From contig CALXBZ010000115.1 in assembly GCA_944386665.1 (NCBI GenBank), forward strand, positions 1-38,855: a stretch of 38,855 nt of DNA. Direction: 5' to 3'. Below the pieces are notes generated by a model, which did no database searches, was not told the DNA's origin, and saw only the letters and a list, made by a program, of their open reading frames with translations. Below are positions 3,353 through 38,855 of this stretch, one piece after another. How positions within the stretch are numbered: the first letter of the stretch is position 1; every line of letters begins with the position of its first letter. Position numbers and translations under genes: made by a program. This DNA comes from an uncultured Clostridia bacterium. Lineage in GTDB: Bacteria > Bacillota > Clostridia > TANB77 > CAG-508.

Positions 3353-3495
3353 TATTTTATCTCGTAACAATATTCAGAAGTACAGTCAAGTGTTGTATAG
3401 CTATCAAATAAATTGTTTATGTATATTGTACTTGCTACCATAAAAGCTATAGTTAATATTAATATAACATATTCTGGAAATAAATCTTTATTCAT
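3352..3495 (-). CDS. Small single-TM membrane protein (47 aa, not in ORF track)
   Basis: Translation MNKDLFPEYVILILTIAFMVASTIYINN... with a GAGGT RBS. It fills the gap before dnaB. Confidence 0.5.
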   Translation of the reverse strand: MNKDLFPEYVILILTIAFMVASTIYINNLFDSYTTLDCTSEYCYEIK

Positions 3496-3496
3496 A

Positions 3497-4093
3497 TTAC
3501 CTCAATAATAAATTAGGAAATCGTGTCATTAAATATTCTACTTCTGGATTATTTATTCTAAGCTCAACAGGAAGTTCATCAAGATATCTTTGTGCTTGAG
3601 TTGGATTGTCTATATCCCAAACAGATAAACTATTATTGTAGGGGCTGCTAGTAGCCTTAGAATTAATGTTCATTTCATTAACTACTCTTTCATTTACCCA
3701 TCCCTTAGTTATCTTATAATAATGAGATATCCTTTGATATTCTTTTAATCTTTGTCGAGCTATACTTTCACTCTCGGCTCGGACTTCTAAGTTACTTATA
3801 TAATCATACAGAACTTCTACTGCTCTATGGAAATATATATCTCCAAACTGTTGTATAACTCTATCATATTCTCCTTTAGTCAGACGGACTTTACCCAAGT
3901 TGTTACTCTGTTGAACTCCATTCCTATCAAACTTCATTACCCTTGCTCGTTTACAATCAAAGCGTTCTAGTAATAATTGATAAGCCTCCTTAGACTGCTT
4001 CTCCGTAAAGGTTTGGACGTATGCAATAAGCGTTTCTTTTGCAGTTAGTTTAGGTATATTAAGTTTTAATTGTTTCTTAGTAACCATATGCAT
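3497..4093 (-). CDS. Replication-initiator C-terminal-domain-like protein (paralog B)
   Basis: VRLTKGEYDRVIQQFG...LYDY...HYYKI..W resembles the C-terminal domain of phage replisome organisers. It lies upstream of dnaB and is similar to 5437..5979. Confidence 0.5.
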   Translation of the reverse strand: MHMVTKKQLKLNIPKLTAKETLIAYVQTFTEKQSKEAYQLLLERFDCKRARVMKFDRNGVQQSNNLGKVRLTKGEYDRVIQQFGDIYFHRAVEVLYDYISNLEVRAESESIARQRLKEYQRISHYYKITKGWVNERVVNEMNINSKATSSPYNNSLSVWDIDNPTQAQRYLDELPVELRINNPEVEYLMTRFPNLLLR

Positions 4094-6544: not shown

Positions 6545-6808
6545 TTATCTACCCTTCATATCTATCATTAATGATGTTACCCAAGCTGTAAGCCCTGATG
6601 CCATTAACAAAGCGTCTGTCTTTATACCTTTTTCCTCTGCTCTTTGTAATATCATAGCAAATAAATCTAATCGTTTATCTATTTCTTCTTCTACATTCAT
6701 TGGTGGTTTTTGTTGTTGTTGAAACTGTTGATTGTTATTAAAGTTTCGTTGGTATTGATTACCTCCCCCAAAATTATTGTTGTTAAAATTCTGTCTAGAA
6801 AATGCCAT
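6545..6808 (-). CDS. Hypothetical protein with N/Q/G-rich low-complexity N-terminus
   Basis: 87-aa ORF with an AAGGAGG RBS. Confidence 0.7.
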   Translation of the reverse strand: MAFSRQNFNNNNFGGGNQYQRNFNNNQQFQQQQKPPMNVEEEIDKRLDLFAMILQRAEEKGIKTDALLMASGLTAWVTSLMIDMKGR

Positions 6809-7499
6809 AAGTAAAATCCTCCTTTAGTTTTGATTGTAATTTTCTACGTAACTTTTTAATACTAGCTCTTATCATTGCTGAACATCTTGCATTACTTATA
6901 TTAAGTTCTTTAGCAATCTGTATTACTTGTTTATTATTATCTAGATATCTTTCTCGTATAGCCTTCTGCGCTATTGGCCTAATAAATTGTAAAAGATATT
7001 CTATTAATGTAATCATTCTTTTAGTATCAATTGTCGTATCCATATTTGTATAAGTAGGCAATGCATTATTTAATTCATACTCGTCAACATCTACTGTTTC
7101 AGCATAATAATCCATATTCATTAATACTTCTGTTCGGTTTCCCATACCCTTATCTTTTAAGTATGCTTTAATTTCATCGGTAGTATTATACAATCTTTTA
7201 GCTTGATAATAATGTGATATATAGTCCGTTATATATCTTGGTATAGTTATCATATTACGTTGTAAGTTTTGTTCTTCTCTTAATCGTCTTGTTAATATCT
7301 TTTGAATATATAGAACACTTTTCTCGGCGATATTGATATTCTTTTTCTTGAGTTTTAAAATAGTTTCATATCCTGCTTGGACTAAATCATCAACATCAAG
7401 TCTATAATCATCCTTTTTTATTTTCAAAGCTACCTTATATATTAATGGTTTATATTTTTTGATGAGTTCCTCATCATTGAATTTTTGTAAGTAGTTCAT
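6795..7499 (-). CDS. Phage-encoded sigma70-family RNA polymerase sigma factor
   Basis: Region 2 (LIKKYKPLIYKVA...DDLVQAG), ITIPR motif and region 4 HTH (QIAKELNISNARCSAMIRASIKKLR). Confidence 0.85.
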   Translation of the reverse strand: MNYLQKFNDEELIKKYKPLIYKVALKIKKDDYRLDVDDLVQAGYETILKLKKKNINIAEKSVLYIQKILTRRLREEQNLQRNMITIPRYITDYISHYYQAKRLYNTTDEIKAYLKDKGMGNRTEVLMNMDYYAETVDVDEYELNNALPTYTNMDTTIDTKRMITLIEYLLQFIRPIAQKAIRERYLDNNKQVIQIAKELNISNARCSAMIRASIKKLRRKLQSKLKEDFTYGIF

Positions 7500-11593: not shown

Positions 11594-11625
11594 CTTATTT
11601 TTGTATATGAAAGGAGGTGATGTTA

Positions 11626-12999
11626 ATGACGTACAGCGTAGAACTTTTACCAGCACAAAAAGAATATTTTGAAATTAATCATAATAATCCAATTGATATA
11701 GCTGTATATCAAGGAGGATATGGTAGTGGTAAAACCTGGTGTGGTAGTTTATTAGGAATAATCTTAGCTATCAAATATCCTGGTATAAGAGGTTTAGTTG
11801 GAGCATTAACATACCCCCTTCTTAGAGATACAACCTTATTTACTTATATAGAACATCTCGATAAATTAGGACTTCAATATACTTTCCTAAAGAATGAGAA
11901 CAAATTAATATTTCCTAATAAGAGCGAGATATTATTCCGCCATCTACAAGAACCTGAAAAACTTAAATCATTAAACTTAGGTTTTGTAGAGATAGAGGAA
12001 ATGAGTGATGTACCGGAGAGTACATTTACAATGTTGTTATCTCGTCTAAGACAAAGTCCTAATCCTGAATGGAAAAACTTTCGCCATAGATTATTCGGTC
12101 ATACAAACCCTCAACAATCCAGAGGTTGGATATATCAATACTTTAAACTAAATCCAAAAGAAGGATATCGAAGGATATTAGCACCTACTACTCAAAATAA
12201 ATTTTTACCAGAAGGTTATATAGAGTTACTTAAAAACTCTTATAACGATTTATATTATAGGATAAATGTAGAAGGTGAAGACTGTGATGATACAACTGGT
12301 CTAGTAACTAAAGGCTTTAACAAAAACCTACAAATTGTAGATGGACTAAATATAGACCCGTCATTACCAATCCATTTAACTTGCGACTTTAACGTAGACC
12401 CGATGTGTTGGTATATATGCCAAGTAAAAGATGGTAATGTATATGTATTATACGAGATGGTAAAAGAAAACACTACTACAGATAGTGCAGCAAGTATTAT
12501 TGCTGATTTGTTATGCAATTATAAAACACATCCTATAATAATAAACGGTGATGCTTCTGGAGATTACGTAACAACCAAAGGTGTTGATTATGTCTATATA
12601 AAGAATAACTTATTGAGGAATGGATTTAATAATCTTACTCTTAAAGTTATGGCTAAGAACCCTGGTATTGAATATAGGATATCGTGTTGGAATAATATGA
12701 TATGTGGGCCTGATAATAAACCCCATATATTTATACATCCTCAATGTAAGTATTTAATATACAATATAGAAAACTATGAAGTAGAACCTGGTACATCTAG
12801 ACCTAAAAAGATAAGCTCTAGTAAAATAAAGAATAACCCTATGGCTAAATACTTAGGTCATCCAATAGATGCAGTTAGTTATTTAGTTTGTTTATACTTT
12901 CCTATTAAAGCTACAAGATATGACCAATATAAATCAAATGAGAGTATCTCTAAAGAACGTGATATATTTGGTGGAAAGTATGATAAACGTTTAATATAA
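11626..12999 (+). CDS. terL: Terminase large subunit
   Basis: Walker A GGYGSGKT, Walker B IEEMS, TNP motif, and nuclease motifs DFN and HPIDAVSY. The GAAAGGAGGT RBS supports the ATG at 11626 (ORF track 11617). Confidence 0.95.
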   Translation: MTYSVELLPAQKEYFEINHNNPIDIAVYQGGYGSGKTWCGSLLGIILAIKYPGIRGLVGALTYPLLRDTTLFTYIEHLDKLGLQYTFLKNENKLIFPNKSEILFRHLQEPEKLKSLNLGFVEIEEMSDVPESTFTMLLSRLRQSPNPEWKNFRHRLFGHTNPQQSRGWIYQYFKLNPKEGYRRILAPTTQNKFLPEGYIELLKNSYNDLYYRINVEGEDCDDTTGLVTKGFNKNLQIVDGLNIDPSLPIHLTCDFNVDPMCWYICQVKDGNVYVLYEMVKENTTTDSAASIIADLLCNYKTHPIIINGDASGDYVTTKGVDYVYIKNNLLRNGFNNLTLKVMAKNPGIEYRISCWNNMICGPDNKPHIFIHPQCKYLIYNIENYEVEPGTSRPKKISSSKIKNNPMAKYLGHPIDAVSYLVCLYFPIKATRYDQYKSNESISKERDIFGGKYDKRLI

Positions 13000-13010
13000 G
13001 GAATAAACCA

Positions 13011-14849
13011 TTGGTAACATTTTTTTATCAAAGCAATAAGAAAATAAATCTTAATCCTGATAAACGTAATAAGATATGTAATGATATCAAATCATTATTT
13101 AAAAACTATTATACTGATTTAGAAGGACCTAAAAGAGAAACTATAGATATCTTAGATAAACTATTTCCTTGTGTTGATGATACTGGAAAACTAGATAAGA
13201 TACCAAGTTTATATGAACAATATAAAACATATACAAGTGCTATACAAAGAGCTTGTTATCCTAGCTATGATGCTATAGTAGATATTAAAGGATTAGATTT
13301 AAAGAGTAATAATCTAGCTGGTACTTATAAAGCAAGTCTTATATACGATTGGTACAATATAGATTTAGAAGCTACTATAGATAAATGCCAAGATGATTGG
13401 GCTATTAAAGGTGAAGCTGCTGCTTATATCTACTGGAAAGAAGAAGTAGTAGAGATAGATGACCCTATACAAAGTATGGAGTTAGATGAGACTACTGGTT
13501 TACCTAAGCTAGTTGAGATACCTAATAAAAGAAATATAACTACTTTTAGAGCTGTAGATGTTAAGCGTATTGACCCTCATAATTTATATTTTGATAGGAG
13601 CCAAGTAGATAATTGGCAATCTTGTAAAAAGGTATATAGAGACTTTATTCCTTTAGAGATTGTTCTTTCTAATACAAGTTATAATCTAACTCGTGATGAA
13701 AAGAAAGAACTAAAACAATTAGTATTAGGTGAAAAGAAAAGTCTTAGTAATCAATACGAAAGTCTTATAAAGGAAGATACTATAGTATATGGTAACTCAG
13801 TAGAAGTCTTAGAGTTTGAAGGTGATTATGTAGACCCTGAAACTTATGAGATATATAGAAATGTAGAAGCTACTGTTGTAGCTGGTAAGTATCTAGCCAA
13901 ATTCCAAGAAAGCAAGAAACCTAAAAGCTCTATTGTATGGGCTGCTTATATGAAGAGGCCTGATACTGGTAGAGGTCAATCACCATTACGTATTCCGGAG
14001 ATATTAAACTCAGTACAGAATATGTGTGCTGACTTAATGATGCAATCCTGGAAATTAAATACTTATCCAACATTCTTAGCTCCTAAAGGAATGTTACCTA
14101 CATACGTAGACCTAGAACCTGGTATGGTAGTAGAATACGATAATACAGATTTATCTATGACTAGCGTACCAAGCAAGATGGATTTCTCATCCGGTCTTAG
14201 AGGATTTGAATTCTCTGACTTTTTCCAAAGACGTATGGAAAGCGCTACTGGTATTAACCAGTATATGCAAGGGGCTATGGATGGTAGTGTAAGAACCGCT
14301 AGTGAAGCAAGTTATATTCATAGCGGAGCTACAATGAGAATGGCTAGAGAAGCTTTCTTATTCTCTCATAACTTCTTATATAAATTAGTTCGTACATATG
14401 CTTTATTCAAGAAAGTATTTGATACTCAAGATGTATCAGTACCTATAGGTAACGACCAGTACGCTATGGTTGATGAAGCTGTACGAAATGGTAATTATCA
14501 ATTTATAATAGGCGGTAGTCAATCCGCTGTAGAAAGAGAGGCTGAAACACAAAAGATATTTACTCTATTCGGATTACCGGTATTCCAAAGTTTAGCAGGT
14601 GTACTTGACCCAATCACTTCTGCAGAATTCCTTAAATGGGTATTGAATAGGATGAACTTCCAAGACACTACCCAAGTAATGGAAATGCTTAATATGAATG
14701 GTATGTTAAGAAAACTTGCTCAACAGATGGGAATACAGAACCAAAACTTTGAAGGGTTTAGACAGGATATGATGGATAGATTTAGTCAACAAGCTCCTCA
14801 AATTGCTGTTGATATGTATAACGAAATAAGAAATGGAGGTAACGTCTAG
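13011..14849 (+). CDS. Portal protein (P22/podovirus-like)
   Basis: 612 aa directly after terL, with MESATGINQYMQG and TASEAS motifs typical of this portal class. Confidence 0.85.
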   Translation: MVTFFYQSNKKINLNPDKRNKICNDIKSLFKNYYTDLEGPKRETIDILDKLFPCVDDTGKLDKIPSLYEQYKTYTSAIQRACYPSYDAIVDIKGLDLKSNNLAGTYKASLIYDWYNIDLEATIDKCQDDWAIKGEAAAYIYWKEEVVEIDDPIQSMELDETTGLPKLVEIPNKRNITTFRAVDVKRIDPHNLYFDRSQVDNWQSCKKVYRDFIPLEIVLSNTSYNLTRDEKKELKQLVLGEKKSLSNQYESLIKEDTIVYGNSVEVLEFEGDYVDPETYEIYRNVEATVVAGKYLAKFQESKKPKSSIVWAAYMKRPDTGRGQSPLRIPEILNSVQNMCADLMMQSWKLNTYPTFLAPKGMLPTYVDLEPGMVVEYDNTDLSMTSVPSKMDFSSGLRGFEFSDFFQRRMESATGINQYMQGAMDGSVRTASEASYIHSGATMRMAREAFLFSHNFLYKLVRTYALFKKVFDTQDVSVPIGNDQYAMVDEAVRNGNYQFIIGGSQSAVEREAETQKIFTLFGLPVFQSLAGVLDPITSAEFLKWVLNRMNFQDTTQVMEMLNMNGMLRKLAQQMGIQNQNFEGFRQDMMDRFSQQAPQIAVDMYNEIRNGGNV

Positions 14850-15178
14850 TGAACTTTGAAGAAGCACAGAGACTCGCGAACTTCAGGAAAAGAAAACAAT
14901 CCGAAGCAAGTTCTAACTTATCTCAGAAAAAGATAGAGATAACCGAGTTTCTTAAAACCCATAGCATCTTTAAGGATATGCTTGAAACAAAACAAAAAAC
15001 TTACGAAGATTGTATTGAATTTATTTATCTCAATGAGATTATACCAAAAATTAGAGGTACTACCTCGATGGAATATTTATCAGGCTTTAAAGATGGTGTT
15101 AACTATTTTGGTAAAGCCTATAAAGAATATTTTAAAGTACTTGATGATTACAATAATCTTATAGAAAGGGATAAATAA
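14849..15178 (+). CDS. Hypothetical head-module protein
   Basis: 109 aa, translationally coupled between portal and scaffold. Confidence 0.65.
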   Translation: MNFEEAQRLANFRKRKQSEASSNLSQKKIEITEFLKTHSIFKDMLETKQKTYEDCIEFIYLNEIIPKIRGTTSMEYLSGFKDGVNYFGKAYKEYFKVLDDYNNLIERDK

Positions 15179-16107
15179 TGGAAGAACAATTAACGAACAA
15201 TGAACAACAAACACCTGTAGAAAGTTTACCATCTGTAGAAAACTCGGCAACTACTGTTGTTGAAGAAAATGCAAGAGAACAATCTACTGAAAATATAGTT
15301 GATGAGGGTGCAACAAATATTCAATCTGAGGCAGATAGCAAACCCGTAGAGGAGACTTTGCCAAAGATTGATACTCCTAATGCTAAAGAAGATATAGAAC
15401 TTCTTAAAAAGCAATTAGATGAGTATAAGCTCAAAGAGGAAGAAATTAAACAATTATCATCAAGATTAGGTACAAATAATTTTAGTGATATGCAAATCTT
15501 TGAAGCTAATAAACAATTAGATATTATAGACAATCAAGCTCAACAAGCCTATATATCTTTATGTAATCAGTTTGGGGTAGATTACCAACCTGATAAAATA
15601 GAAGCTAGTGCTAATGAGCTTAAGTCTAGAGACCCGCAAGCTTATTATGATTTAAACTATAAGCTTAATCAATTAGATAACGTAGTTAATCAACAACGTA
15701 ATGAAATCAAAAACTTTGTACGAAATAGAGAGATACAACTTTCTACTAAAAAGTATAACAAAATATTAAGTGCTAGTCCTGTATTAAGACAACAACTTGA
15801 CAATTATTTAACCATAGTAAACCCTGCTAATCCTTCTAAGGATATAGATATGTTTATGCAAATAGCACAATCTATACAAGCAGAGGCTTTTGAATATGGT
15901 AAGTTGTTTGCACAACAGGAAGCTAAGAAAGTTGAAGCTTCTCCAGAAACTATATTGAATAATAATTCTATTGTACAAGGTAGTAATGGTGGAACTACAA
16001 CAGGAGCTAAACCATTAACTCTTGCAGATATAGAGAAGATGGATTTGGCTACATATAGTAAATACGCAACAGAGATTGATAGACTACGTTCCGAAGGTAG
16101 ATTATAA
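15178..16107 (+). CDS. Capsid scaffolding protein
   Basis: Acidic disordered N-terminus, coiled coil and basic C-terminal end (..MDLATY...RSEGRL), immediately upstream of the capsid gene. Confidence 0.75.
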   Translation: MEEQLTNNEQQTPVESLPSVENSATTVVEENAREQSTENIVDEGATNIQSEADSKPVEETLPKIDTPNAKEDIELLKKQLDEYKLKEEEIKQLSSRLGTNNFSDMQIFEANKQLDIIDNQAQQAYISLCNQFGVDYQPDKIEASANELKSRDPQAYYDLNYKLNQLDNVVNQQRNEIKNFVRNREIQLSTKKYNKILSASPVLRQQLDNYLTIVNPANPSKDIDMFMQIAQSIQAEAFEYGKLFAQQEAKKVEASPETILNNNSIVQGSNGGTTTGAKPLTLADIEKMDLATYSKYATEIDRLRSEGRL

Positions 16108-16129
16108 TTAACTTTGAAAGGAACGCATT

Positions 16130-16276
16130 ATGGCAAATTCAACTACAAATTTTGGTAATAACGAATTTAATAATGCTAATGGCTTAAACCCGATTATATT
16201 TTCTAAGAAGGTAGCATTAGCATATACTAAAAAATCTAAAATTCTTGAACTCATTACTAATGATATGTGGGAAGGT
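16130..16276 (+). CDS. Major capsid protein, exon 1 (49 codons)
   Basis: GAAAGGA RBS. Translation MANSTTNFG...NPIIFSKKV...ITNDMWEG joins in frame to exon 2 to give WEGEIKNQGDRVRI. Confidence 0.9.
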
Positions 16277-16959
16277 AAACTATAAATCTTGCCTTCCGTC
16301 TAAAAACTCCGCTAAACGGGGAAGCCCTCCAAAGTTAATAGGGTAATCCCGTACCAAGCTTTATAGGCGACTATAGAGTATGGTCTAACGACTAGAGTTG
16401 AAACTCATTGAGTTAATAATTACTCCACGAAAACGGGGAATTGAATGAATAAAGAATACAAAAATAAAGAACTACTAGCTAAAAAATATAATGAATTAAG
16501 GTCGATGCAAAAGGTTGCTGATTACTACGGAGTTAGTAAGAAGTTAATACTTAATTATATGAATAGATTTAATATACCAAGATTTCAGAGACCTCCAGCT
16601 AAACCTAAAATTAAAAAAGAAGATACTTATCATAAAGGTTATATAACAACTTGGAATGGTTATATAAAAGTAAAAGCTCCTATAGACCATCCGTATAAAG
16701 ATAATAAAGGATATATAATGCAACATAGATTAATTATGGAGCAAAGTATAGAGCGATACTTAGAACCTTATGAAGAGGTTCACCATATAGATTACAATAA
16801 ACAAAACAATAACTTAAATAATTTAATGCTAGTAACAAAAACAGAACATATACGTATTCATTTAAAAGATAGTATTCATCCAGTTAAGATATAGTCTGAA
16901 CTTATACAATGGTAAAGTATAAGATGTAAAGGATAAAGAGCCTTTACGATAACATAATG
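16277..16959 (+). mobile_element. Group I self-splicing intron (683 nt) in the major capsid gene
   Basis: P1: exon end GGAAGGU pairs with IGS GCCUUCC (16291-16297) with a U-G pair at the splice site. P10: AAUCUU pairs with GAGAUU. P/Q elements AAACGGGGAA and AAUCCCGU. P7: GACUA (16390-16394) with UAGUC (16892-16896). P9 hairpins and terminal G at 16959. Confidence 0.93.
16445..16894 (+). CDS. Intron-encoded HNH homing endonuclease with N-terminal HTH
   Basis: QHRLIME...EEVHHIDYNKQNNNLNNL HNH motif and N-terminal HTH (MQKVADYYGVSKKLI). Located between the two P7 strands. Confidence 0.9.
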   Translation: MNKEYKNKELLAKKYNELRSMQKVADYYGVSKKLILNYMNRFNIPRFQRPPAKPKIKKEDTYHKGYITTWNGYIKVKAPIDHPYKDNKGYIMQHRLIMEQSIERYLEPYEEVHHIDYNKQNNNLNNLMLVTKTEHIRIHLKDSIHPVKI

Positions 16960-17928
16960 GAGATTAAAAATCAGGGAGATAGAGTTAGAATAGTTCTTCC
17001 TAACCTAGATGGTATTACTATTGGTGATGGTGATTTATGTCCTACTCCTGGCTCTATTGACCCTGAAGCTCTTGACTTGGTAATTGATAAACAGAAAACA
17101 TTCCGTTTTGATATTTCTGATAAACAACTTGCTCAAACACAATTCAAAAATATCGAAGATGGTTATGCTAACGCAGTTGCAGAAAAGGTAGCACAAGTAA
17201 GAGCATTAGAAGTACAAAGAGCAATCTTTGAATACGATGGCGCTACAGTTGATGCTGAAGATACAGAATATGACCATACTAAACACGAATTAGCTGGTGA
17301 TTTCGGTACTGATACTGCTCCTGTAGAAGTAACTCCTCAAAATGCTTATCCGTTTATGCTTCAAGTTAAGATGGCTTTATTAGATAAAGGTGCTATCGCT
17401 GATGATGGTACTTACAACTTCAAACCATTAGAGCAAGAAGCTCAGGATATGAGAGGTGTATTTATTTGTGGTACTAGATTAGCTGCAATCTTATTATCTG
17501 CTTACCAAATTGCTGCTCGTTCTACAGCTGCTGTAGATATGGTAGTACAAGATGGTGTAGTTAAACGTGTTGCTGGCTTGGATGTTCATATTGATAGACT
17601 CTTAGACCAAGTAACTACAACAAAAGGTAATGGTACAGTAGACGCAAATGATAGTACTAGAAAGAAATTTACTAACTTACCATTTATTGCTGGTACTAAG
17701 AACGCTATTACTAAAGCTTCTCAAATCTCTAAAGTAGAAAAAGTTAGAGACCCGTATTGCTTCAATACAATTGTTAAAGGTATGGAACTTTACGGTTTCA
17801 AAGTACTTCACCCAGAAGCTCTCGTACGTGGTGTTGCTAAGGCTTACGAAGGAAAGATTATGGATATCAATGCTTCTATTCCTGTAGTTCAAACAGCACC
17901 TGTACCTACAGAAGACGCTGGAGCTTAG
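16960..17928 (+). CDS. Major capsid protein, exon 2 (spliced product 371 aa)
   Basis: P22-coat-like motifs GDRVRI, LVIDKQKTFRF and YGFKVLHPEAL. Follows the scaffold gene. Confidence 0.9.
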   Translation, partial: EIKNQGDRVRIVLPNLDGITIGDGDLCPTPGSIDPEALDLVIDKQKTFRFDISDKQLAQTQFKNIEDGYANAVAEKVAQVRALEVQRAIFEYDGATVDAEDTEYDHTKHELAGDFGTDTAPVEVTPQNAYPFMLQVKMALLDKGAIADDGTYNFKPLEQEAQDMRGVFICGTRLAAILLSAYQIAARSTAAVDMVVQDGVVKRVAGLDVHIDRLLDQVTTTKGNGTVDANDSTRKKFTNLPFIAGTKNAITKASQISKVEKVRDPYCFNTIVKGMELYGFKVLHPEALVRGVAKAYEGKIMDINASIPVVQTAPVPTEDAGA

Positions 17929-17933
17929 TTTTC

Positions 17934-17957
17934 GAGGGGATTAATTCCCCTCTCTTA
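17934..17957 (+). terminator. Hairpin/terminator after the capsid gene
   Basis: GAGGGGA-TTAAT-TCCCCTC perfect 7-bp stem with a weak U-tract. Confidence 0.65.
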
Positions 17958-17987
17958 ACGATTAAATAATATTGGGTATAATTAGAT

Positions 17988-18728
17988 ATGGCTAACAAAA
18001 CTTATTTTGATTTATGTAATGAAGTATTAACAGAATTATTTTATGAGAGAGTAAGTACCTTTGAAGAATTAGATGGTATTGCCGAAGGTATTAAAGTTAA
18101 ACAAGATTTAAATTCTGCTCTTAATATGGTGTGTAATAGTGAGAATGCTCCATTTAGATTTAGAAAATGTGAGTTTGACTTAGCACTTGTCGAAGGTATT
18201 AAAAACTATGAAATGCCTAATGGTTATATCGACTATATGAGATATAGAGATACTCCAATAGTATTGGTATATGAAGAGGACCACGAGTATCTACCTGTTA
18301 CTTATGGTATGCCTTTACAATATTGGATAGATAACGGTAAAGAGATTTCTTTATATCCTATACCAGACTCTACTCAAACAGGGCGTCTTATTAAAGTAGA
18401 GTTCTATACAAATGATTTTGCTAGAAACAAATGTGGTGTTTTAAAACCAGAAATGAAACTAGCAGATGATGAACCTATTATACCAAACCATCATAGAGAT
18501 ATTCTTAAATGGAAAGTATGTGCTGATTGGAGAGCTTCATTAAACGATGCTAAAGCTTTATTCTATGAAAGAAGATATAAGAAAGCTTATACAAATCTAA
18601 TAGCAGACCAGAAGCTTACAAGAGATTATCCAGCTGGATTTAATATTATGGGTAATAACTTAAAGAATTATCAGAATAGTATTATTAGAGCTTTCTATTT
18701 ACCATCAACAGCTAAAAGGATTTATTAA
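17988..18728 (+). CDS. Head-to-tail adaptor (tail tubular protein A-like)
   Basis: Follows the capsid gene. The TYFDLCNEVL start and G.P..Y...LYPIPD...D.P.IP motifs are typical of podovirus adaptors. Confidence 0.7.
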   Translation: MANKTYFDLCNEVLTELFYERVSTFEELDGIAEGIKVKQDLNSALNMVCNSENAPFRFRKCEFDLALVEGIKNYEMPNGYIDYMRYRDTPIVLVYEEDHEYLPVTYGMPLQYWIDNGKEISLYPIPDSTQTGRLIKVEFYTNDFARNKCGVLKPEMKLADDEPIIPNHHRDILKWKVCADWRASLNDAKALFYERRYKKAYTNLIADQKLTRDYPAGFNIMGNNLKNYQNSIIRAFYLPSTAKRIY

Positions 18729-21184
18729 TGGCAGGAACTATTAAATACTATAACTTAACAGGTGGACTTAATACAGTTCAAGGATTGGGTACAATCAATC
18801 AATCTCCTAAACGTACAGAGTCTCCTGATATGATGAATGTTGAATATTACAAATTAGGTGGTATTCAATCTATGGAAGGTAACCAACAATTTGCAAATGT
18901 ACTTCCATCATCTATTACATTAGGTTATGAGTATATATATCAAAATACAAAATATATGATAGTATGTACTTCTGATGGTACTGTATATAGATATGATAAA
19001 CCCTCTAGTGAATTTATTCAAATATATAAATTTGCTACTCCTACAGAACGTCATAGTATTTGTACTTTTAATAATGGTATAGTAATAAGTAATGGTGTAG
19101 ACGATTTAATTTTTTATCAATACGGACGCCATCAATTACTTCAAGGTAGTCTTACTTTAACTCAAGACTCTACAGAAATAACTGGTACTGATACTAAGTT
19201 TCTTACTGATTTATCTATTGGAGATTATATTGAATTCGCAGATATAGAAGGTAAATTTAAAGTAGTTACAATTACTGATGATACTCATTTAACAATAGAT
19301 AGAGTACCAGAGTTTGAAGCTAGTCAACTATATTATGCTTGGACTAATGGTGATACTACATTATATACAACAACAATTGATAATAGTACTAATGTAAATG
19401 TTTATAATATAAATGGGACTAGTGTTAGTATAGCTTATACTAATGGGAATATAGCAAATAATGTACTAAGTATACAAACAAAACAAACTGTAACCCAACA
19501 AGGAAGTAATTATAAAGATTGGACACAACCTAATCCAACTTCTAATACGTCTTATGGAACAATATCAGGTAATATAGAAAATCCATATACGTTATTCTCT
19601 GGTGGTGGCTATGGATTCGCTTTTGGAACAGTTACAGTAACCTGGAATTTTCCAGTTACATTGAGACTTAGTTCAATTAGTTATAGAATTGTTGAGGCTG
19701 GTTACTCTAGATTAACGGTTAGAGTGTATAATCAAAATAATACTTTATTATCTGTTAGAGAAATAGACCAGACGAGTGGTGATATTTTTAATGACACCTT
19801 TAATACTGTAACTGATACAACAAGTATAAGAGTAGAATTTAATTATCCCTTAGTATCTGGTGGACCTGGTTTTGCTCTTGTAGGAGAAATAAAACTATAC
19901 GGTAAAGAGAAATATAGTTATAACTACACATCTGAAGAAGTTGTTAATACTAACTACAACTATTCAGAATCTGATAATCAAACTCTTGATACTAACCTTA
20001 GTAATGTTAGTTATTACCTAAGTGATATATCAGAACTTAATGCAGTATATACTACTGATGATGAAAACATACGTAGAGAAATAAGAGGGCTTGCTCTTAA
20101 CTCATACCAAGGTAGAATATTCGTAGGTGCTAATGATGGAACTTTGTATTATTCTGGAGTAGGTTTAATCCACGGATGGAACTTACAAAAAGATGATGCT
20201 GGAGCTATACCCTCATTCTATGATGATAACTCTGATTTTACCGCGTTAGGTTTATGGGATAAATATTTAGTAATATGTAAGAGAGAAAGAAGCTATTTAC
20301 TTGATGGTACTAATGCAGACCAAGGGCAATGGATTTTAAACCCTTATAGTGATTATACTTGTGATAGTCAACAATCTTGGTTAGTAGCTAATAACTCCTT
20401 TATAGTATACTCTCGTAGTGCTGGTGGTATATATCCATTACTTCAAAGAACAATCTATAACCCTAACTATCAGGGTGTGGATATGAGTGTAAAGATAAGG
20501 GATAGTTTTTATAATCTTAATGAAAGTAAATTCCCTTTTATATTCCCAGTATATCATCCAAGAAAAAAATATATAATGTTCTATATGCCATTTATTTATG
20601 GCAATGGAAGTAACTATTGTTATATATTTGATTTACAAACAAAGACTTGGTTACTTAGAGTAGTACCGCAAGAAGTAACTTGTGCATTTAGATATGATAA
20701 TAAAATATATATAGGTACTCGAACTGGTAAAATACTAGAAGAATTTAAAGGTAGTAACTTTGATGGAGAGCCTATAGAGTTTTATTGGAAATCACCATTC
20801 TTTACATTCGGACAAGGAACTGATTATCTATCTACTAGAGAATTTAGAGTTAGTATAAGCGAAGATAGTTTAAATAAATTCTACGTTAGAAATAGAAGAG
20901 ATGGAGAGGGTAAGCAAGACTCCAGATTAATTACACAATCAGTTCAAGGTGGAAATACTCTTATATGGAATACTGTTAATCAAGAAGGAGATAATATAAC
21001 AGATACAACTTGGGATAATTATAACTGGGTTATAAATAAATATAGTGTAAAACGTTTTCCATTACCTAGACAATTCTTCCAACAAATGCAAGTAGAGTTT
21101 TACGGTAAAGGATTAGATGAAGGAATGAGAATATTTGGTTTTGAGATAGACGGTATACAACTAGAAGAAGTAACCTGGAGATAG
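18728..21184 (+). CDS. Tail nozzle/stabilisation protein (tail tubular protein B-like) with inserted domain
   Basis: N-terminal GGLN, beta-propeller-type repeats (YQGRIFVG, LYYS, TALG) and a T/N-rich central insertion. Confidence 0.7.
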   Translation: MAGTIKYYNLTGGLNTVQGLGTINQSPKRTESPDMMNVEYYKLGGIQSMEGNQQFANVLPSSITLGYEYIYQNTKYMIVCTSDGTVYRYDKPSSEFIQIYKFATPTERHSICTFNNGIVISNGVDDLIFYQYGRHQLLQGSLTLTQDSTEITGTDTKFLTDLSIGDYIEFADIEGKFKVVTITDDTHLTIDRVPEFEASQLYYAWTNGDTTLYTTTIDNSTNVNVYNINGTSVSIAYTNGNIANNVLSIQTKQTVTQQGSNYKDWTQPNPTSNTSYGTISGNIENPYTLFSGGGYGFAFGTVTVTWNFPVTLRLSSISYRIVEAGYSRLTVRVYNQNNTLLSVREIDQTSGDIFNDTFNTVTDTTSIRVEFNYPLVSGGPGFALVGEIKLYGKEKYSYNYTSEEVVNTNYNYSESDNQTLDTNLSNVSYYLSDISELNAVYTTDDENIRREIRGLALNSYQGRIFVGANDGTLYYSGVGLIHGWNLQKDDAGAIPSFYDDNSDFTALGLWDKYLVICKRERSYLLDGTNADQGQWILNPYSDYTCDSQQSWLVANNSFIVYSRSAGGIYPLLQRTIYNPNYQGVDMSVKIRDSFYNLNESKFPFIFPVYHPRKKYIMFYMPFIYGNGSNYCYIFDLQTKTWLLRVVPQEVTCAFRYDNKIYIGTRTGKILEEFKGSNFDGEPIEFYWKSPFFTFGQGTDYLSTREFRVSISEDSLNKFYVRNRRDGEGKQDSRLITQSVQGGNTLIWNTVNQEGDNITDTTWDNYNWVINKYSVKRFPLPRQFFQQMQVEFYGKGLDEGMRIFGFEIDGIQLEEVTWR

Positions 21185-22590: not shown

Positions 22591-24489
22591 ATGGTTGAAC
22601 AAAAGAAAAATCAAATATTTCCTTGGAATAAACCAGGAGCTACTCCATTATCTATAGGATTAGATTTAGCTGGTAGTGGTTTAGCTGGTTTATCTGGATT
22701 AGGTATACTTAGTGGTGTTGGTTTAATACCAGGTGGGTTAGGATTACTTGGTAGTGTTGGACTTCATAATGCAGCAGATACTGCACGTGGAAATAATCAA
22801 TCAGTATCATTAGTTAAAGAGAATCCTAAACTACAACAAACTATTACTAATACTCCTCAACAACCAGCAAGAAGGAATTATGGATTTAAACCAGATACTA
22901 TTCAAGGAAAAATAGTTAGTGAAGCTTATAAACAAGGTGTTGACCCTGCTTTAGCTCTAGCAATAGCTAAACAAGAAAGTGGATTTAATCCTAATGCTTT
23001 CGGAGATATTAATGTTGGTGGTTCTTATGGGTTATTTCAAATCCATAGACCATCCCATCCAAACTACAAAGGCGGATTTAATGTTGATGAAAATATAAAA
23101 TACGGAGTAGGCTTTCTTAAAAATCTTGGTAACAGATTTAATAACGATATACAAAAAGTTATAATGGCTTATAATGCTGGGGCTGGTGCTGTTAATAGTG
23201 GCAATATTCCAGCATCAACTAGGCAACAATACTTACCTGGGGTTATGGGTTTTTATAATGAATACAATAAAGGTGAAGTTCCATATACTCCACAATTTAA
23301 CCAGAGGCTACTAGGAGGCTCAGCAACCCCTGTTAATTATGAAATAGGATATGTTGACCCCCCAAGAAATACAACAGCCCTTAATAAGCTTTTAAACGCC
23401 GCTAAGAATAATCAAGGAAATATAGATATGGATAATATTACTAATAACCAACAGATGGCTAATCTTTTAAATAATATACAAATGATATCTGAGTTTGCAA
23501 GAGGAGCACAACAAGGTAATAGACTTCCTGATTTAGGAGTCAGCAATGAAGAATTAGATGCTTATAGTAGAGCTTTAGAACAATTCGGAAAAAATATAGC
23601 TGGTGCCCGTAAAGATTTACAAACATATCAAGAAGCTATAGGAAATGTAGGTAGAGCTAATGCTCTAGCCCCTGTATTAAATGCTGTTGGCTCAGCCGCT
23701 ATTAATGCATTAGATACTAGATATCGCCCTATGTTTGATGTTACTGGACGTAATTATATAGGTGATAGAACTGGTGCTTTAAGAGACCCTAGAGTAAATT
23801 TATTCGGAGATAACGTAGCTAGAGGTATGATAAATAATCTATCAATAGCTGATAAACTTATCCAAATGAATAACGCACAAAGACAATTAGAATTACAGAG
23901 ACAACAACAAGCTGCTGATTTATTAACAGCTGCTAGGGTAAGTAATCAAACAGGTTTACCACTCCAAGTAACACGTCAGATGACACCTACTGATTATATA
24001 AATTATATTAAACCTACTCAAGAAGCTCAAAACAAAACACAAGAACAAGCTATGCAAGGTGTAGTAGATGCTATTACAGATAGACAACAACAATTAGCAG
24101 ATTATACTAAAGCAATAGATGAACAAAACTTACAAAATCTTGGACAGTATAATGTAGAACTTTTAGGTCAACAAGGTCAGAACTTAAGACAGGCTGCTCA
24201 ATTAGAAAATCAATATAATATAGCAATGATGGATAATGCTACTCGTAGATATATTGTTCAACAAACAGGGTTAAATGCTCAACAATTAGAGAACTTGAGA
24301 CAGTCTGACCCAAATGCATTCTATAGAGCAATAGGTCCAGTTCTTATGGCAGCTACATATAGTGTTGGTACTCCTGCTGCACAAAATGCTGGATTATTCA
24401 TTAACAATTTATTACTACCTTTAATTGGACAACAAGGAACTACTCAACAAACTCCTGACCAATCTTACTGGAGTCAATTTAATAAATAA
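22591..24489 (+). CDS. Ejection protein with SLT lytic transglycosylase domain
   Basis: AIAKQESGFNPNA, GLFQI and AYNAG motifs, an N-terminal Gly-rich hydrophobic segment and a Q-rich C-terminal region. Confidence 0.85.
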   Translation: MVEQKKNQIFPWNKPGATPLSIGLDLAGSGLAGLSGLGILSGVGLIPGGLGLLGSVGLHNAADTARGNNQSVSLVKENPKLQQTITNTPQQPARRNYGFKPDTIQGKIVSEAYKQGVDPALALAIAKQESGFNPNAFGDINVGGSYGLFQIHRPSHPNYKGGFNVDENIKYGVGFLKNLGNRFNNDIQKVIMAYNAGAGAVNSGNIPASTRQQYLPGVMGFYNEYNKGEVPYTPQFNQRLLGGSATPVNYEIGYVDPPRNTTALNKLLNAAKNNQGNIDMDNITNNQQMANLLNNIQMISEFARGAQQGNRLPDLGVSNEELDAYSRALEQFGKNIAGARKDLQTYQEAIGNVGRANALAPVLNAVGSAAINALDTRYRPMFDVTGRNYIGDRTGALRDPRVNLFGDNVARGMINNLSIADKLIQMNNAQRQLELQRQQQAADLLTAARVSNQTGLPLQVTRQMTPTDYINYIKPTQEAQNKTQEQAMQGVVDAITDRQQQLADYTKAIDEQNLQNLGQYNVELLGQQGQNLRQAAQLENQYNIAMMDNATRRYIVQQTGLNAQQLENLRQSDPNAFYRAIGPVLMAATYSVGTPAAQNAGLFINNLLLPLIGQQGTTQQTPDQSYWSQFNK

Positions 24490-24500
24490 GAGGTTTATTA

Positions 24501-27401
24501 ATGGCTGATAAATTTAATAGACAAGAGGCTATACAAGGTGCTTTAGATATGGGACAATCGATTGAACAAATCAATCAAGGTCTTAGTTCTATTGGACAAA
24601 AACCTTTAAGTAGTTATGAACAAACATTAATACAAGATAATAACTTTGGACAATCTTTAGGAGAAAGGTTTGGGGAAGGTGCAATGAATTTTGCTCAAGG
24701 TTTGGGTACTATTCTTGCATCTCCCGTTGAATATTATCGTAATAAAGATTTCAGAAATGCTGTTAATAAAGGTGTAGCTAACTACACACAAGATGTATTA
24801 ACCGGTAATAGAAATCCTGTTGAAGACTTTACTAATCTAATGTTAAGTCCATACGGTGTAGAGTCTAATGATATATTTAAAGCTCCTCTTCAATCAGGAC
24901 AACGTATATTAGAAGGTGCTGCTTCTCATCCATTTGATGCTACATTAGATGCTATGAGTATACTTCCTCCCGGTACTATAGCAAACGTTTTAAATAAAAT
25001 ACCTAATGAAGGGTTTCAAAAAATTAGACGTGGGATAATGCCTACTACTAGAGAAAGACGTGTTAATACTCTTCTCAATAGAGGAGCTGGCGAAAGTATT
25101 ACTAAACGTTCTGACTTTGAAGATAAACTTACTAAGATTGCTACAGACTCTGACTTACCTAAATATGTTAGAGAATTAACTACAGGTACCGGCGAAGCTA
25201 GTAAAGGTAAACAGGCATTACAAGACTTTACTAAAGAATTAAATGAGAGGATGGTTAAGCTAGGGTTAGACCCTAATGAATATAAGAGAACTTCTGTAGC
25301 TCAAAAAGTATTAGAAGATTTAGACCCTAACAGAAAAGGTAATATATATTTACAGAATGTACAGAAAGCTATAGATAATCCTACAGAAGCTAATATAAAA
25401 GCTTTAGGTGTAGATGAAGCTAGGTTTAAACAATTAGTCGACGATGCTAATAAACTTGCGGATAAAGGTAAGCTAGCTACTATTACTCAAAGAAATATAT
25501 ATAGTGATGTAGACCACAGACTGGTAGACTTATCAGAATTAGGCCAAGGTGTTACAAGACAAAGAACTTTCGGTACAGCTACTCCAGAACAAGTAGCAAG
25601 AAATTTTGATAGAGGATATAGAAATCTATATAACCTTATTGAACGTGCTGAAAATAGTAGAGATAGTCTCGGAGAAATAGCTAAAGAATTCGGTCGAAAA
25701 ATATCTCCTAATGATGTTAATAAGGTTCGGAGTAATGAAGTAGTTATATCTCCTAAAGAATATCGAGATAATGTAAGTCAACTGTTTGGGCGTGATACAA
25801 ATGGTAATATAGAAAAGCTAGCTAATGATGTTACTAAAGGTGCTAATGCAAACACATTAAGTAAGTATAGTGATGATTTATATGTGGTGCCTAAAGCTGA
25901 TGTAGAAGCTTGGAGAAACTATACAGCTGGTATAGATTACCAATCGTTAATGGGTAGATTTGTACAAAGTGCTAGACCTGTAATGGGAGCGTTTAAATCA
26001 AATGTGCTAACCAGACCTTCTTATGTAGCTGGTAACAGAATAGGTAACTGGGCATTAGGTGCTATAGGTGGAGCTGATTATGCGAGCGCTTTAAATCCAA
26101 GACTAAGAAAATATATTCCAGAATATATTAAACAATCAACATCCTACCACGGCTATGATGCTGTTAATACAAATAATCCTTTAGTTGCTTATAAAGATAG
26201 TGCATCTAGATTACGTAATGCAATTAAAGATATTCAAGACCCTGATACTAAGTTACCTGATAGAATAGCAGCAGCTGGTCAAGTAGTACAACGTACTCAA
26301 GAATTAGCATTACCTATAAGACAATTATTCCAAGCTGAAAGTCAATTAGAATATCTTGACAGAAGTGCGGTTTATTTTAATGAGGCTAAGAAGTTAGCTA
26401 GAGAAACTAATAAATCTTTTGAACAAGTATTAAAAGAAGGAGTTAAAGATAGTCAAACACAACGTACTTTAATAGATAGAGTTAATAGTGTATTAGGAGA
26501 TTATGTAGGTAGAAACTATTATATAAATCCAACTCTTAGAGAATTTGCTTCTACAATAACTCCATTCTATAAGGTAATAACAACAAGTGCTGATGTTGGA
26601 AGACAACAATTATATAGAAATCCATTCCGTGTGCAAGCGTATGCTAGGATACCAAGCAGAGCTGGTAATGAAATACAAAGAGTAGATGCTGAACTTGGAT
26701 ATCAACCAACTGATAATGACCCTAGAGGTGGTATGGTAGTTACTCCTACTTATAGTAGACGTGCTCCAGCTACAGTATTATATAATAATTATCATCCACT
26801 TAGTGCTCCTGCTGAAATAGTACAGAGTTTATTTGGACCTTCTCCAAGACAAGGTGAAGGTACTGGATTAGCTGGTATCGGTGGTATAGTTGCTGGTAAT
26901 ATAACTCCAATTACTGGAATAATAAATGCGTTAGAAGGTAAAGACCCTTATGGCAATCCTGTAGTTGGTCCTAATAGTTATAAGCTAGGTAATCAAGTTA
27001 TTACTCTTGATGAGAATGGTAATAAATTAGAACAACCTGATATTATCGGTGGTGTAACCGGATATATAGGAAGATATCTACTTCCTTCTGCTACATTATG
27101 GAACTCTACTCTAGGACCTGTTGCAGGAACTTTAAACAATAGAAACTTCTATAGACCAACATCACGTTCTATATTCGGACAGATAGGTAATACCCCAAGT
27201 ATTCCTTACTTATATGAAGGTAATCCTAATAAACCAATGGCTAATAATCCGTTAGATGTTTGGATTAATCAAACTGGATTTAGGACAAGAGATGTATGGT
27301 ACCCATTACAAAATAGAATAAGTCCTTATGATATGAGACAACTTAATAGACGTAGATATATGGATGAACAAAGATTATTAATGAAACAACGAGGTAATTA
27401 A
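24501..27401 (+). CDS. Large ejection/internal virion protein
   Basis: 966 aa, third of the ejection-protein trio by position. Confidence 0.6.
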   Translation: MADKFNRQEAIQGALDMGQSIEQINQGLSSIGQKPLSSYEQTLIQDNNFGQSLGERFGEGAMNFAQGLGTILASPVEYYRNKDFRNAVNKGVANYTQDVLTGNRNPVEDFTNLMLSPYGVESNDIFKAPLQSGQRILEGAASHPFDATLDAMSILPPGTIANVLNKIPNEGFQKIRRGIMPTTRERRVNTLLNRGAGESITKRSDFEDKLTKIATDSDLPKYVRELTTGTGEASKGKQALQDFTKELNERMVKLGLDPNEYKRTSVAQKVLEDLDPNRKGNIYLQNVQKAIDNPTEANIKALGVDEARFKQLVDDANKLADKGKLATITQRNIYSDVDHRLVDLSELGQGVTRQRTFGTATPEQVARNFDRGYRNLYNLIERAENSRDSLGEIAKEFGRKISPNDVNKVRSNEVVISPKEYRDNVSQLFGRDTNGNIEKLANDVTKGANANTLSKYSDDLYVVPKADVEAWRNYTAGIDYQSLMGRFVQSARPVMGAFKSNVLTRPSYVAGNRIGNWALGAIGGADYASALNPRLRKYIPEYIKQSTSYHGYDAVNTNNPLVAYKDSASRLRNAIKDIQDPDTKLPDRIAAAGQVVQRTQELALPIRQLFQAESQLEYLDRSAVYFNEAKKLARETNKSFEQVLKEGVKDSQTQRTLIDRVNSVLGDYVGRNYYINPTLREFASTITPFYKVITTSADVGRQQLYRNPFRVQAYARIPSRAGNEIQRVDAELGYQPTDNDPRGGMVVTPTYSRRAPATVLYNNYHPLSAPAEIVQSLFGPSPRQGEGTGLAGIGGIVAGNITPITGIINALEGKDPYGNPVVGPNSYKLGNQVITLDENGNKLEQPDIIGGVTGYIGRYLLPSATLWNSTLGPVAGTLNNRNFYRPTSRSIFGQIGNTPSIPYLYEGNPNKPMANNPLDVWINQTGFRTRDVWYPLQNRISPYDMRQLNRRRYMDEQRLLMKQRGN

Positions 27402-38333: not shown

Positions 38334-38798
38334 TTATAGTATATTATGTTTCTCTAATTCTATATTGATTTGTTTATATAATTCTGTTGGGTCTTTTATA
38401 TGGTCGATATTGTATACTTTTATTTCTACCCTAGGATTATCTCTATCTATTCCTCCATCTGTATATAACACCATAGGTATATTACTAGCTTTATCATCTG
38501 GTAACTTACCACATTCAACTAGAGCATCTTCAAAGAATTTTTGATGGATAGATAGAACATTACCTATATCAAATCTTCTGTTATCACCTTTAAATACTTG
38601 ATATAGTATAGCTATCTTTTCGTATCTAGGTTTATCTTGTATCTGGTCTACAATAGCTTGCTTATATTTAATCTTTGCTACGTTTAAAGTTCTGAAATAA
38701 GTATTGCGATAGTTGTTAAGATTAAGAATAAAAAATCTTTCCTTACCTTTTTTATCTATGCTTAATCTAATCTTTAAAGGACTTACTATCTTATACAT
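38334..38798 (-). CDS. RusA-like Holliday junction resolvase
   Basis: LNLN..Y, RRFDIGN...KFFEDAL...G.LPDD and D..NPRVEI motifs. Confidence 0.85.
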   Translation of the reverse strand: MYKIVSPLKIRLSIDKKGKERFFILNLNNYRNTYFRTLNVAKIKYKQAIVDQIQDKPRYEKIAILYQVFKGDNRRFDIGNVLSIHQKFFEDALVECGKLPDDKASNIPMVLYTDGGIDRDNPRVEIKVYNIDHIKDPTELYKQINIELEKHNIL

Positions 38799-38855
38799 TA
38801 AACCTCCTAATTTACTCTGATAAAGATTTACTCATATTATACCTCATATCTTTCA
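38779..38855. repeat. Terminal direct repeat, right copy
   Basis: Identical to 1-77. Confidence 0.95.

Follow-up and report, generated by a model that had tools for sequence, protein, structure and literature searches.

The locus considered here raises the question of how a phage makes its major capsid protein when the first 49 codons of the gene are set apart from the remaining 322 by 683 nt of other DNA. The DNA is a 38,855-nt contig (CALXBZ010000115.1) deposited with the assembly of an uncultured Clostridia bacterium (GCA_944386665.1); the whole contig is referred to as the window. The answer, which is very probably correct and which is drawn from comparison of sequences, is that a mobile and presumably spliced group I intron, which encodes an HNH endonuclease, divides the capsid gene of a ~38.8-kb phage behind its 49th codon.

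Exon 1 is read from the ATG at 16130 and ends in W E G (GAA GGT, with GGT at 16274-16276). Its frame closes only two codons into the insert, at a TAA lying in the predicted P1 loop, so that the open reading frame (ORF) listed for this stretch is 16130-16285. With 16277-16959 excised, the frame runs on from W E G into E I K N Q G D R V R I, and the gene has 49 + 322 = 371 codons, followed by the stop codon of exon 2. The downstream part of the gene appears in ORF lists as a 323-aa ORF opening at ATG 16957, and this ATG (16957-16959) is nothing other than the last three bases of the intron; an AGGA-like ribosome-binding site (RBS) was looked for upstream of it by direct reading of the sequence and not found. 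Exon 1 is preceded by the Shine-Dalgarno-like GAAAGGAA, which ends 6 nt 5' of its ATG, and similar AAGG motifs precede the neighboring genes at 15178 and 18728. An earlier reading of the same DNA, made from the letters alone (the sequence-only reading), had placed exon 1, the 683-nt insert and the start of exon 2 at exactly these coordinates, had credited exon 1 with a strong RBS (that is, GAAAGGAA, of the same type as the RBSs of the neighboring genes), had taken ATG 16957 for the end of the intron, and had predicted a 371-aa spliced product containing WEG-EIKNQGDRVRI. All of this agrees with the sequence, and the predicted product equals a continuous homologue, P0001, that is described next. 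(An intein was also considered as the intervening element and is rejected because stop codons come after exon 1.)

The boundaries of the insert are given by alleles that do not have it. A protein search with exon 2 found 136 relatives, the best 120 of which are listed as homologue clusters. The closest of these 120, P0001, is a continuous protein of 371 aa. Along exon 2 it is 97% identical to the window, and its N-terminal 49 residues are those of exon 1 (49/49) and lead directly into EIKNQGDRVRI. Alignment to intron-less capsid homologues had been put forward as a check on the sequence-only reading, and P0001 skips the insert exactly. Intron-less alleles are also found as DNA, in public chicken-gut sequencing runs that were compared with positions 15900-18100 of the window. 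In run X3, a contig of 37,429 nt has 16276 followed by GAA and then by 16963. This is the expected junction but for one silent substitution (GAG>GAA), and the flanks of the contig are ~98% identical to the window (6 differences in 377 nt on one side and 20 in 1,138 nt on the other). A 1,715-nt contig of run X5 has the exact 16276 to 16960 junction; the same run has contigs that cross the exon 1/insert boundary and the insert/exon 2 boundary, so that both alleles are present in one sample. The intron-bearing form is seen in several runs (X2, X5 and X10), and the 8,035-nt contig of run X10 (labelled RNA-Seq, probably DNA) is a diverged relative with the insert that differs from the window at 170 positions over 15900-17529. 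Since the 683 nt are skipped exactly in two independent metagenome contigs, and since the pairings described below covary in relatives, the boundaries are beyond what chance would produce.

That the divided gene encodes the major capsid protein follows from exon 2, which matches PHROG 267 (major head protein; 5.9e-13) and, by tblastn, annotated coat and capsid genes at 25-29% identity with E values down to 1e-15. A profile built from 13 family members finds the capsid protein of mycobacteriophage Che8 (PDB 8e16; 4.6e-9). Upstream, the order of the head module is terminase, portal, two ORFs without family match, and then the capsid gene. Judged by these sequence matches and by its place in the head module, the split gene is that of an HK97-fold major capsid protein. 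No Pfam family was found for exon 1, exon 2 or P0001. An AlphaFold model of P0001 is poor, with a mean predicted local distance difference test score (pLDDT) of 57.8; a Foldseek search of the PDB with this model returned nothing at E<=0.001, though its top rows are mostly phage capsids.

The insert can be folded as a group I ribozyme (Table 1). The canonical order of helices from P3 to P9, including the P3/P7 pseudoknot, fits the window, with P8 tentative, and every pairing that the sequence-only reading had claimed (P1, P10, P7 and the P9 hairpins, together with the terminal G at 16959) is found in the sequence. Two weakly supported 4-bp hairpins, P7.1 and P7.2, lie between P7 and the 3' strand of P3, in a stretch (16395-16425) that Rfam handles as an insertion between P7 and P3'. 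Extra P7.1/P7.2 helices at this place characterize the phage-type subgroup IA of group I introns, to which the window intron may belong.

Table 1. Features of the split capsid gene, its intron and the upstream head genes (coordinates of the window)
Feature	Position	Strand	Remarks
Shine-Dalgarno-like GAAAGGAA	16116-16123	+	direct reading
Exon 1, major capsid gene	16130-16276	+	49/49 identity to N-terminus of P0001; insert-less DNA alleles end at 16276
In-frame TAA ending exon 1 frame	16283-16285	+	ORF listing
Group I intron (predicted)	16277-16959	+	skipped exactly by DNA contigs (X5, X3); RF00028; covariation
Exon 2, major capsid gene	16960-17928	+	PHROG 267; family profile finds Che8 capsid protein
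P1	16270-16276 / 16291-16297	+	exon end GGAAGGU with internal guide GCCUUCC, 7/7; U16276-G16291 wobble at 5' splice site
P10	16285-16290 / 16960-16965	+	AAUCUU with GAGAUU (first six bases of exon 2), 6/6 in window
P3	16307-16311 / 16434-16438	+	CUCCG with CGGGG; all cells paired; a single change, U-G to U-A
P4	16316-16321 / 16347-16352	+	aligned to RF00028 P4; invariant, 100% paired
P5	16325-16328 / 16340-16343	+	aligned to RF00028 P5
P6	16354-16366 / 16371-16383	+	13 positions, one A-A mismatch, GCGA loop 16367-16370; 3 compensatory pairs; 78.9% of cells paired
P7	16390-16394 / 16892-16896	+	GACUA with UAGUC; GACUA matches RF00028 consensus; invariant in 7 sequences
P7.1	16395-16398 / 16403-16406	+	direct reading; 92.9% paired (7 sequences), one-sided changes only
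P7.2	16410-16413 / 16422-16425	+	direct reading; 91.7% paired (3 sequences), no compensatory changes
HNH endonuclease ORF, 149 aa	16445-16894	+	Pfam HNH_3, PHROG 7545; fills P8 region
P8, 3' strand (tentative)	16872-16879	+	pairs with 16454-16459 or 16445-16450, mutually exclusive
P9	16901-16907 / 16917-16923	+	7-bp hairpin; 100% of cells paired; 5 compensatory pairs
P9.1	16926-16932 / 16941-16947	+	7-bp hairpin; 100% of cells paired; 2 compensatory pairs
Terminal G (omega G)	16959	+	last base skipped in intron-less DNA alleles; invariant in 7 sequences
Terminase large subunit gene	11617-12999		
Portal gene	13011-14849		sub-threshold SU10 portal match
109-aa ORF	14849-15178		no family match
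309-aa ORF	15178-16107		no family match

The structure was examined for covariation in seven sequences (alignment A4: the window and six relatives, L021, L017, L068, L071, L072 and L069). There are 64 proposed pairs, 92.8% of their 447 cells are paired, and 11 of the pairs have changes on both sides (5 in P9, 2 in P9.1, 3 in P6 and 1 in P10). None of 500 shuffles reaches any of the five measures used, and slid controls give 0-3 compensatory pairs with 29-45% pairing. (As the structure was taken from the window and the other sequences are its relatives, the paired percentage is partly built in; it is the compensatory pairs that are informative.) A count over three sequences gives 74 pairs, 91.9% paired and 7 compensatory. 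P1 is paired in 95.9% of cells in the seven sequences, with its U-G invariant throughout; the C-G of the window P10 is U-A in five of the six other sequences and unpaired in one.

The Rfam group I model (RF00028; gathering score 50 bits) finds this structure in part. A search of the 1-kb segment 16100-17100 matches 16236-16454 with 30 bits (E 1.5e-5). The matched stretch takes in P3, P4, P5 and P6 together with one strand of P7 (the 5' one) and the 3' strand of P3, and beyond it the 450-nt ORF splits the model. The relative L021 scores 35.1 bits, and a natural sibling without an ORF, L071, whose length is 262 nt by the columns of alignment A3, reaches 59.2 bits in a narrow search (E 1e-14), above gathering. 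In the covariance-model search that had been suggested as a check, the score was thus above gathering for the ORF-less relative and below it for the window itself. On the 3' side of the ORF, the core AAGAUAUAGUCU, which holds the 3' side of P7, is identical to the Rfam consensus and is common to the terminase intron of Streptococcus phage SW13, and 106 deposited phage records have blastn matches to the final ~80 nt of the window intron, with identities of 77-85%. The reading of the insert as a group I intron with an HNH gene is supported by the intron-less alleles with the predicted junction, the Rfam group I matches, the covariation and the HNH matches given next.

The HNH assignment of the sequence-only reading is upheld by Pfam and PHROG. 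The intron ORF matches Pfam HNH_3 (PF13392) with 37.8 bits against a cut-off of 24.8 (E 1.5e-9) and PHROG 7545 at 1.3e-22, and 12 PHROG HNH families match at E<=1e-4. The HNH domain is C-terminal; the N-terminal part has a weak match to Pfam HTH_50 (8.4e-4, below the cut-off). The H-H...N...N...H residues are kept in the four variants available (window, L017, L021 and L068), and the ratio of nonsynonymous to synonymous substitution rates (dN/dS) is 0.11-0.15 in the four computable pairs among them, two pairs being saturated. By these comparisons the ORF is intact and under purifying selection. Its expression signals are embedded in the ribozyme: the ATG comes 6 nt after the 3' strand of P3, the RBS (GGGGA) overlaps that strand, and the TAG stop codon is the first three bases of the 3' strand of P7.

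The same intron recurs at the same site in other phages. Six IMG/VR contigs (L017-L022, found with the HNH protein) and L068 carry it with the ORF, flanked by exons reading W E G before the intron and E/D I after it, and a pattern search of IMG/VR gives ten contigs with the same intron core. In these intron-bearing relatives the capsid exon 2 is 32% identical to that of the window, the product of the upstream gene 44% and the HNH protein 75%; the 5' ribozyme part of the HNH-bearing relatives is 86-92% identical to the window as DNA. Among the best 120 of the 136 relatives, 109 clusters are continuous, 8 are exon-2-only ORFs with an intron-derived start and 3 are fragments. (Of the exon-2-only clusters, 3 start M[ED]IK and 5 start MY[KR]IKSLYDN.M, which is the translated P9.1 region.) In 44 of the continuous clusters tyrosine takes the place of tryptophan at the insertion site, and within this best-120 set none of the 44 has a counterpart of the intron type, a pattern that fits, as a correlation, a requirement for the GGAAGGU exon end. 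The target site is conserved, reading TGGGAAGGT followed by GAAAT in the intron-less L003 and L005, and TGGGAAGGC followed by GAGAT even in L014 and L015, which are distant. These are the four loci, out of 12 examined, at which the site was read, and its conservation is judged mainly from the count of protein clusters. Viral contigs searched with the single exon 2 protein yield 0 relatives, searched with an alignment they yield 11 loci, all continuous and insert-free, and a scan of genome contigs yields two relatives only, at 26% identity.

A third state of the locus is an intron without an ORF. It is present at the same capsid site in L071 (L071:1717-1978), L072 (~6992-7247) and L069 (minus strand, ~3340-3605), with a length of ~256-262 nt, and these copies come from the same metagenome as the HNH-bearing L017-L022. 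Relative to the window their 5' ribozyme part is 89-92% identical and their 3' part 76-81% (~91% and 81%, respectively, for L071), the two being joined by a short local hairpin. This short P8 is made from a remnant of the HNH start, GGATGAAA, and a remnant of its end, ATTCAAT.AAGATATAG, which implies that the endonuclease gene was probably deleted in the ORF-less copies. Homing should leave three traces, namely a patchy distribution of the intron, its presence in one phage and absence from a near-identical one, and copies from which the endonuclease gene has gone; all three are seen. Occupation of one site in capsid genes that are 32% identical, by introns whose HNH proteins are 75% identical and which appear in 8 of the best 120 of 136 clusters, points to a mobile intron. 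The earlier suggestion that the HNH protein homes into intron-less capsid alleles fits this distribution, as it fits presence and absence of the intron in near-identical phages.

Pieces of related sequence turn up in other surroundings. Several short contigs of runs X2 and X3 match positions 16891-16960 of the window only, with unrelated sequence on both sides, so that these samples contain further members of the intron family elsewhere. Genes annotated as tape measure or minor tail protein in Clostridium perfringens phages contain matches, at ~82-85%, to the final ~75 nt of the window intron, and such matches also fall in unannotated parts of one Staphylococcus and one Clostridioides phage. 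The records, taken together, are JF767208/NC_019506 (phiCP13O), JF767209/NC_019508 (phiCP34O), MZ401006 and OQ717002; MK893987; and MW512570. They may contain related introns that have gone unannotated.

The sequence of events that these features would allow is as follows. In the late transcript the ribozyme would fold, the end of exon 1 pairing with the internal guide in P1 to place the U-G wobble at 16276. An external guanosine would attack the 5' splice site; P10 would align exon 2, and the freed end of exon 1 would attack after the terminal G at 16959, producing the mRNA for a 371-aa coat protein that reads WEG-EIKNQ across the junction. The HNH protein is encoded in the P8 region, with its RBS in the 3' strand of P3, its start at or next to P8 and its stop in P7. 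Since these signals lie in or beside P3, P8 and P7, ribozyme folding and HNH translation should exclude each other on one RNA: the folded ribozyme would hide the HNH start region, and a translating ribosome would prevent folding. In a mixed infection the HNH protein would cut or nick an intron-less capsid allele near the conserved site (TGGGAAGGT followed by GA.AT), and repair from the intron-bearing genome would copy the intron in. Catalysis, the specificity of cleavage and the mutual exclusion of folding and translation are what we infer from the arrangement of these elements.

Several observations weigh against this account and should be set beside it. The RF00028 score of the window (30 bits) is below the gathering score, and RF00028 matches arise only in narrow searches: the whole window has no Rfam match at the gathering score and likewise none at E<=0.1, L017 and L021 have none when searched within 11 kb, and L069, L071 and L072 have none at gathering with default filters (L071 within 32 kb). 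The 3' piece of the intron on its own scores 10.4 bits (E 1.1). P3, P4 and P7 are invariant or have one-sided changes, contribute zero covariation evidence and so speak neither for nor against the structure; P1 has an A-C mismatch in L021 and in L069, and P10 has two mismatches in L021 and one in L017. The placement of P8 is ambiguous between its two pairings. (The option 16454-16459/16872-16877 is 94.4% paired in three sequences, and the ORF-less sibling makes its short local P8 there.) There is no room for a P2, the gap between P1 and P3 being just 9 nt. For the HNH protein, no close relative was found among 50,697 deposited phage genomes (one partial match covers 33% of the query), and its sequence searched against the PDB at E<=1 gives a weak helix-turn-helix (HTH) match only (E 0.46). 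Finally, the chicken-gut runs are, or probably are, DNA, and they show presence and absence of the element, not splicing.

Whether the intron does anything for the phage is a question in its own right. Splicing might time or limit coat-protein synthesis (the sequence-only reading had proposed it as a gate on capsid production), or the HNH protein might damage the capsid gene of co-infecting intron-less relatives. Such a service to the phage is distinctly unlikely, since 109 of the best 120 of 136 homologue clusters do without the intron, and since relatives that dropped the HNH gene yet kept the intron are what the usual selfish cycle predicts, which argues against a needed function. Against this must be set the overlap of the HNH RBS and stop with P3 and P7, by which ribozyme folding would be coupled to HNH translation, the co-occurrence of both alleles in one sample (X5), which makes encounters plausible, and the precedent of phage PhiPA3, an intron endonuclease of which is reported to act in competition between co-infecting phages (PMC11620839). 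The more specific idea that the HNH protein is a weapon between related gut phages, cutting the essential coat-protein gene of competitors during co-infection, is doubtful. If it were true, the intron-bearing phage would win even without copying of the intron, and the near-identical chicken-gut phages with intron and HNH, with intron and no HNH, and with no intron would be a snapshot of the contest.

It is very improbable that the intron is real and that this copy of it is dead, because it sits in a defective phage genome or in a capsid allele no longer expressed. The window comes from a metagenome bin, the phage may not be viable, and the Rfam score is sub-gathering; yet all core helices are intact, P1 (7/7) and P10 (6/6) are better paired than in relatives, each exon is an open frame that agrees at 97-100% with the continuous P0001, purifying selection acts on the HNH ORF, which is likewise open, the two ends of the contig overlap by 77 nt, as is typical of complete circular assemblies, and the intron-bearing form recurs in runs X2, X5 and X10. 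Equally little weight can be given to an unspliced insertion of an HNH gene that would leave the capsid protein as two polypeptides (51 aa, and 323 aa from ATG 16957) assembling in trans: an unspliced split gene is in print (NrdA of Aeromonas phage Aeh1, split by mobE; PMC7344957), both pieces have an ATG, and the case for splicing is built on DNA, all of which favors two polypeptides, but a complete ribozyme core with compensatory changes in seven relatives makes no sense without splicing, the 262-nt ORF-less version (L069, L071, L072) still splits the gene while carrying no gene of its own, ATG 16957 is RBS-less and simply the intron end, and the frame upstream of exon 2 in relatives reads through P9.1 as MY[KR]IKSLYDN.M.

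A mobile, spliced group I intron, the preferred explanation, has a practical consequence for annotation. The capsid genes of the window phage and of at least 8 related clusters are mis-called as ORFs of 323-346 aa, which start at the intron-end ATG or translate intron bases, in place of a true product that would be 371 aa in the window. The mis-called clusters lacking exon 1 are P0007, P0010, P0019, P0021, P0033, P0043, P0049 and P0054. Among these uncultivated gut phages, a single position in an essential late gene is found in three states (intron with HNH, intron without ORF, no intron), which make a clean natural example of the cycle of gain, decay and loss of a homing intron.

Introns of this kind in head genes are not new, and the rarity implied by the sequence-only reading, which had set the case against phage introns in genes of DNA metabolism, was overstated. 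A table of PMC2504315 lists an intron with an HNH gene (orf38) in the major head protein gene (mp4) of Lactococcus phage Tuc2009, and PMC3706429 describes an intron with a putative homing endonuclease in the major capsid subunit gene of the Cluster J mycobacteriophage LittleE. The Tuc2009 locus has the architecture of that of the window: orf37, of 56 codons, is the short upstream exon, the HNH ORF lies within a group I intron, and the long downstream exon, orf39, is annotated as 'linked with orf37 after excision of group I intron'. The gene comes after the scaffolding gene. The locus differs in its HNH protein, which is 310 aa as against 149 aa. Comparison of the window region with the Tuc2009 locus by blastn and tblastn gives chance-level matches only, apart from a 12-nt core, AAGATATAGTCT, and it follows that these are independent insertions in unrelated capsid families. 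Splicing of the LittleE intron was shown by reverse transcription PCR and N-terminal sequencing, and, as in the window, the last base of its exon 1 is U and the last base of the intron is G (PMC3706429). Unlike that of the window, the LittleE endonuclease is LAGLIDADG-like and encoded on the opposite strand, the intron is termed 'most likely group I', and the host is a high-GC actinobacterium (this comparison is one of descriptions). No case closer than Tuc2009 and LittleE was found in the literature, which was not searched for the phage group of the window by name. The literature has included group I introns with HNH genes in phage head genes ever since Tuc2009, and the present locus is a further case that poses no new question.

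Other relatives share the ribozyme or the type of endonuclease. The intron of the Streptococcus thermophilus phage SW13 (Brussowvirus), with kin in Clostridium and Staphylococcus phages, is ~77-85% identical to that of the window over the last ~80 nt (J8/7-P7-P9), scores 50.1 bits on RF00028 and, in the Rfam alignment, has its insertion at the same point, behind P7 and before P3'; it differs in its host gene (terminase large subunit, split 1723/2008), in being ORF-less and in a 5' part without blastn similarity. Group I introns with HNH enzymes that drive homing, nicking one strand, are those of Bacillus phages SPO1 and SP82 (I-HmuI, I-HmuII) and of Staphylococcus phage Twort, and homing of the SPO1/SP82 introns by a nicking endonuclease has reportedly been the subject of a dedicated study, which is cited in PMC3706429. 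The host genes of these introns are different (a DNA polymerase gene and others), and the domain order of I-HmuI would be the reverse of that in the window protein, which has the HTH-like part at the N-terminus and the HNH domain at the C-terminus.

The wider setting is that of a phage genome. The first 77 bases of the contig (1-77) are the same as the last 77 (38779-38855), and the window is probably a complete phage genome from a circular assembly, ~38.78 kb in length with 31% G+C. It is contig C115 of a 117-contig, 1.22-Mb bin, a candidate for the host. The 309-aa ORF immediately upstream of the capsid gene has a position that suggests a scaffolding role. Over 15000-18200, promoter-like and terminator-like sites occur at chance level (14 against 15.1 expected and 1 against 1.1 expected, respectively). 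A 7-bp G+C-rich hairpin (GAGGGGA / TCCCCTC, 5-nt loop) at 17934-17952 begins at a distance of 6 nt from the end of the capsid gene; no clear T run lies on its 3' side, and the terminator scan did not call it. The large late proteins encoded at 18728-21184, 24501-27401 and 28673-31000 have no PHROG match at E<=1e-5. On the minus strand, 6795-7499 encodes a 234-aa protein with a weak PHROG match to an RNA polymerase sigma factor family (4.3e-10), and on the plus strand, 22591-24489 encodes a 632-aa protein that matches endolysin and lytic tail protein families.

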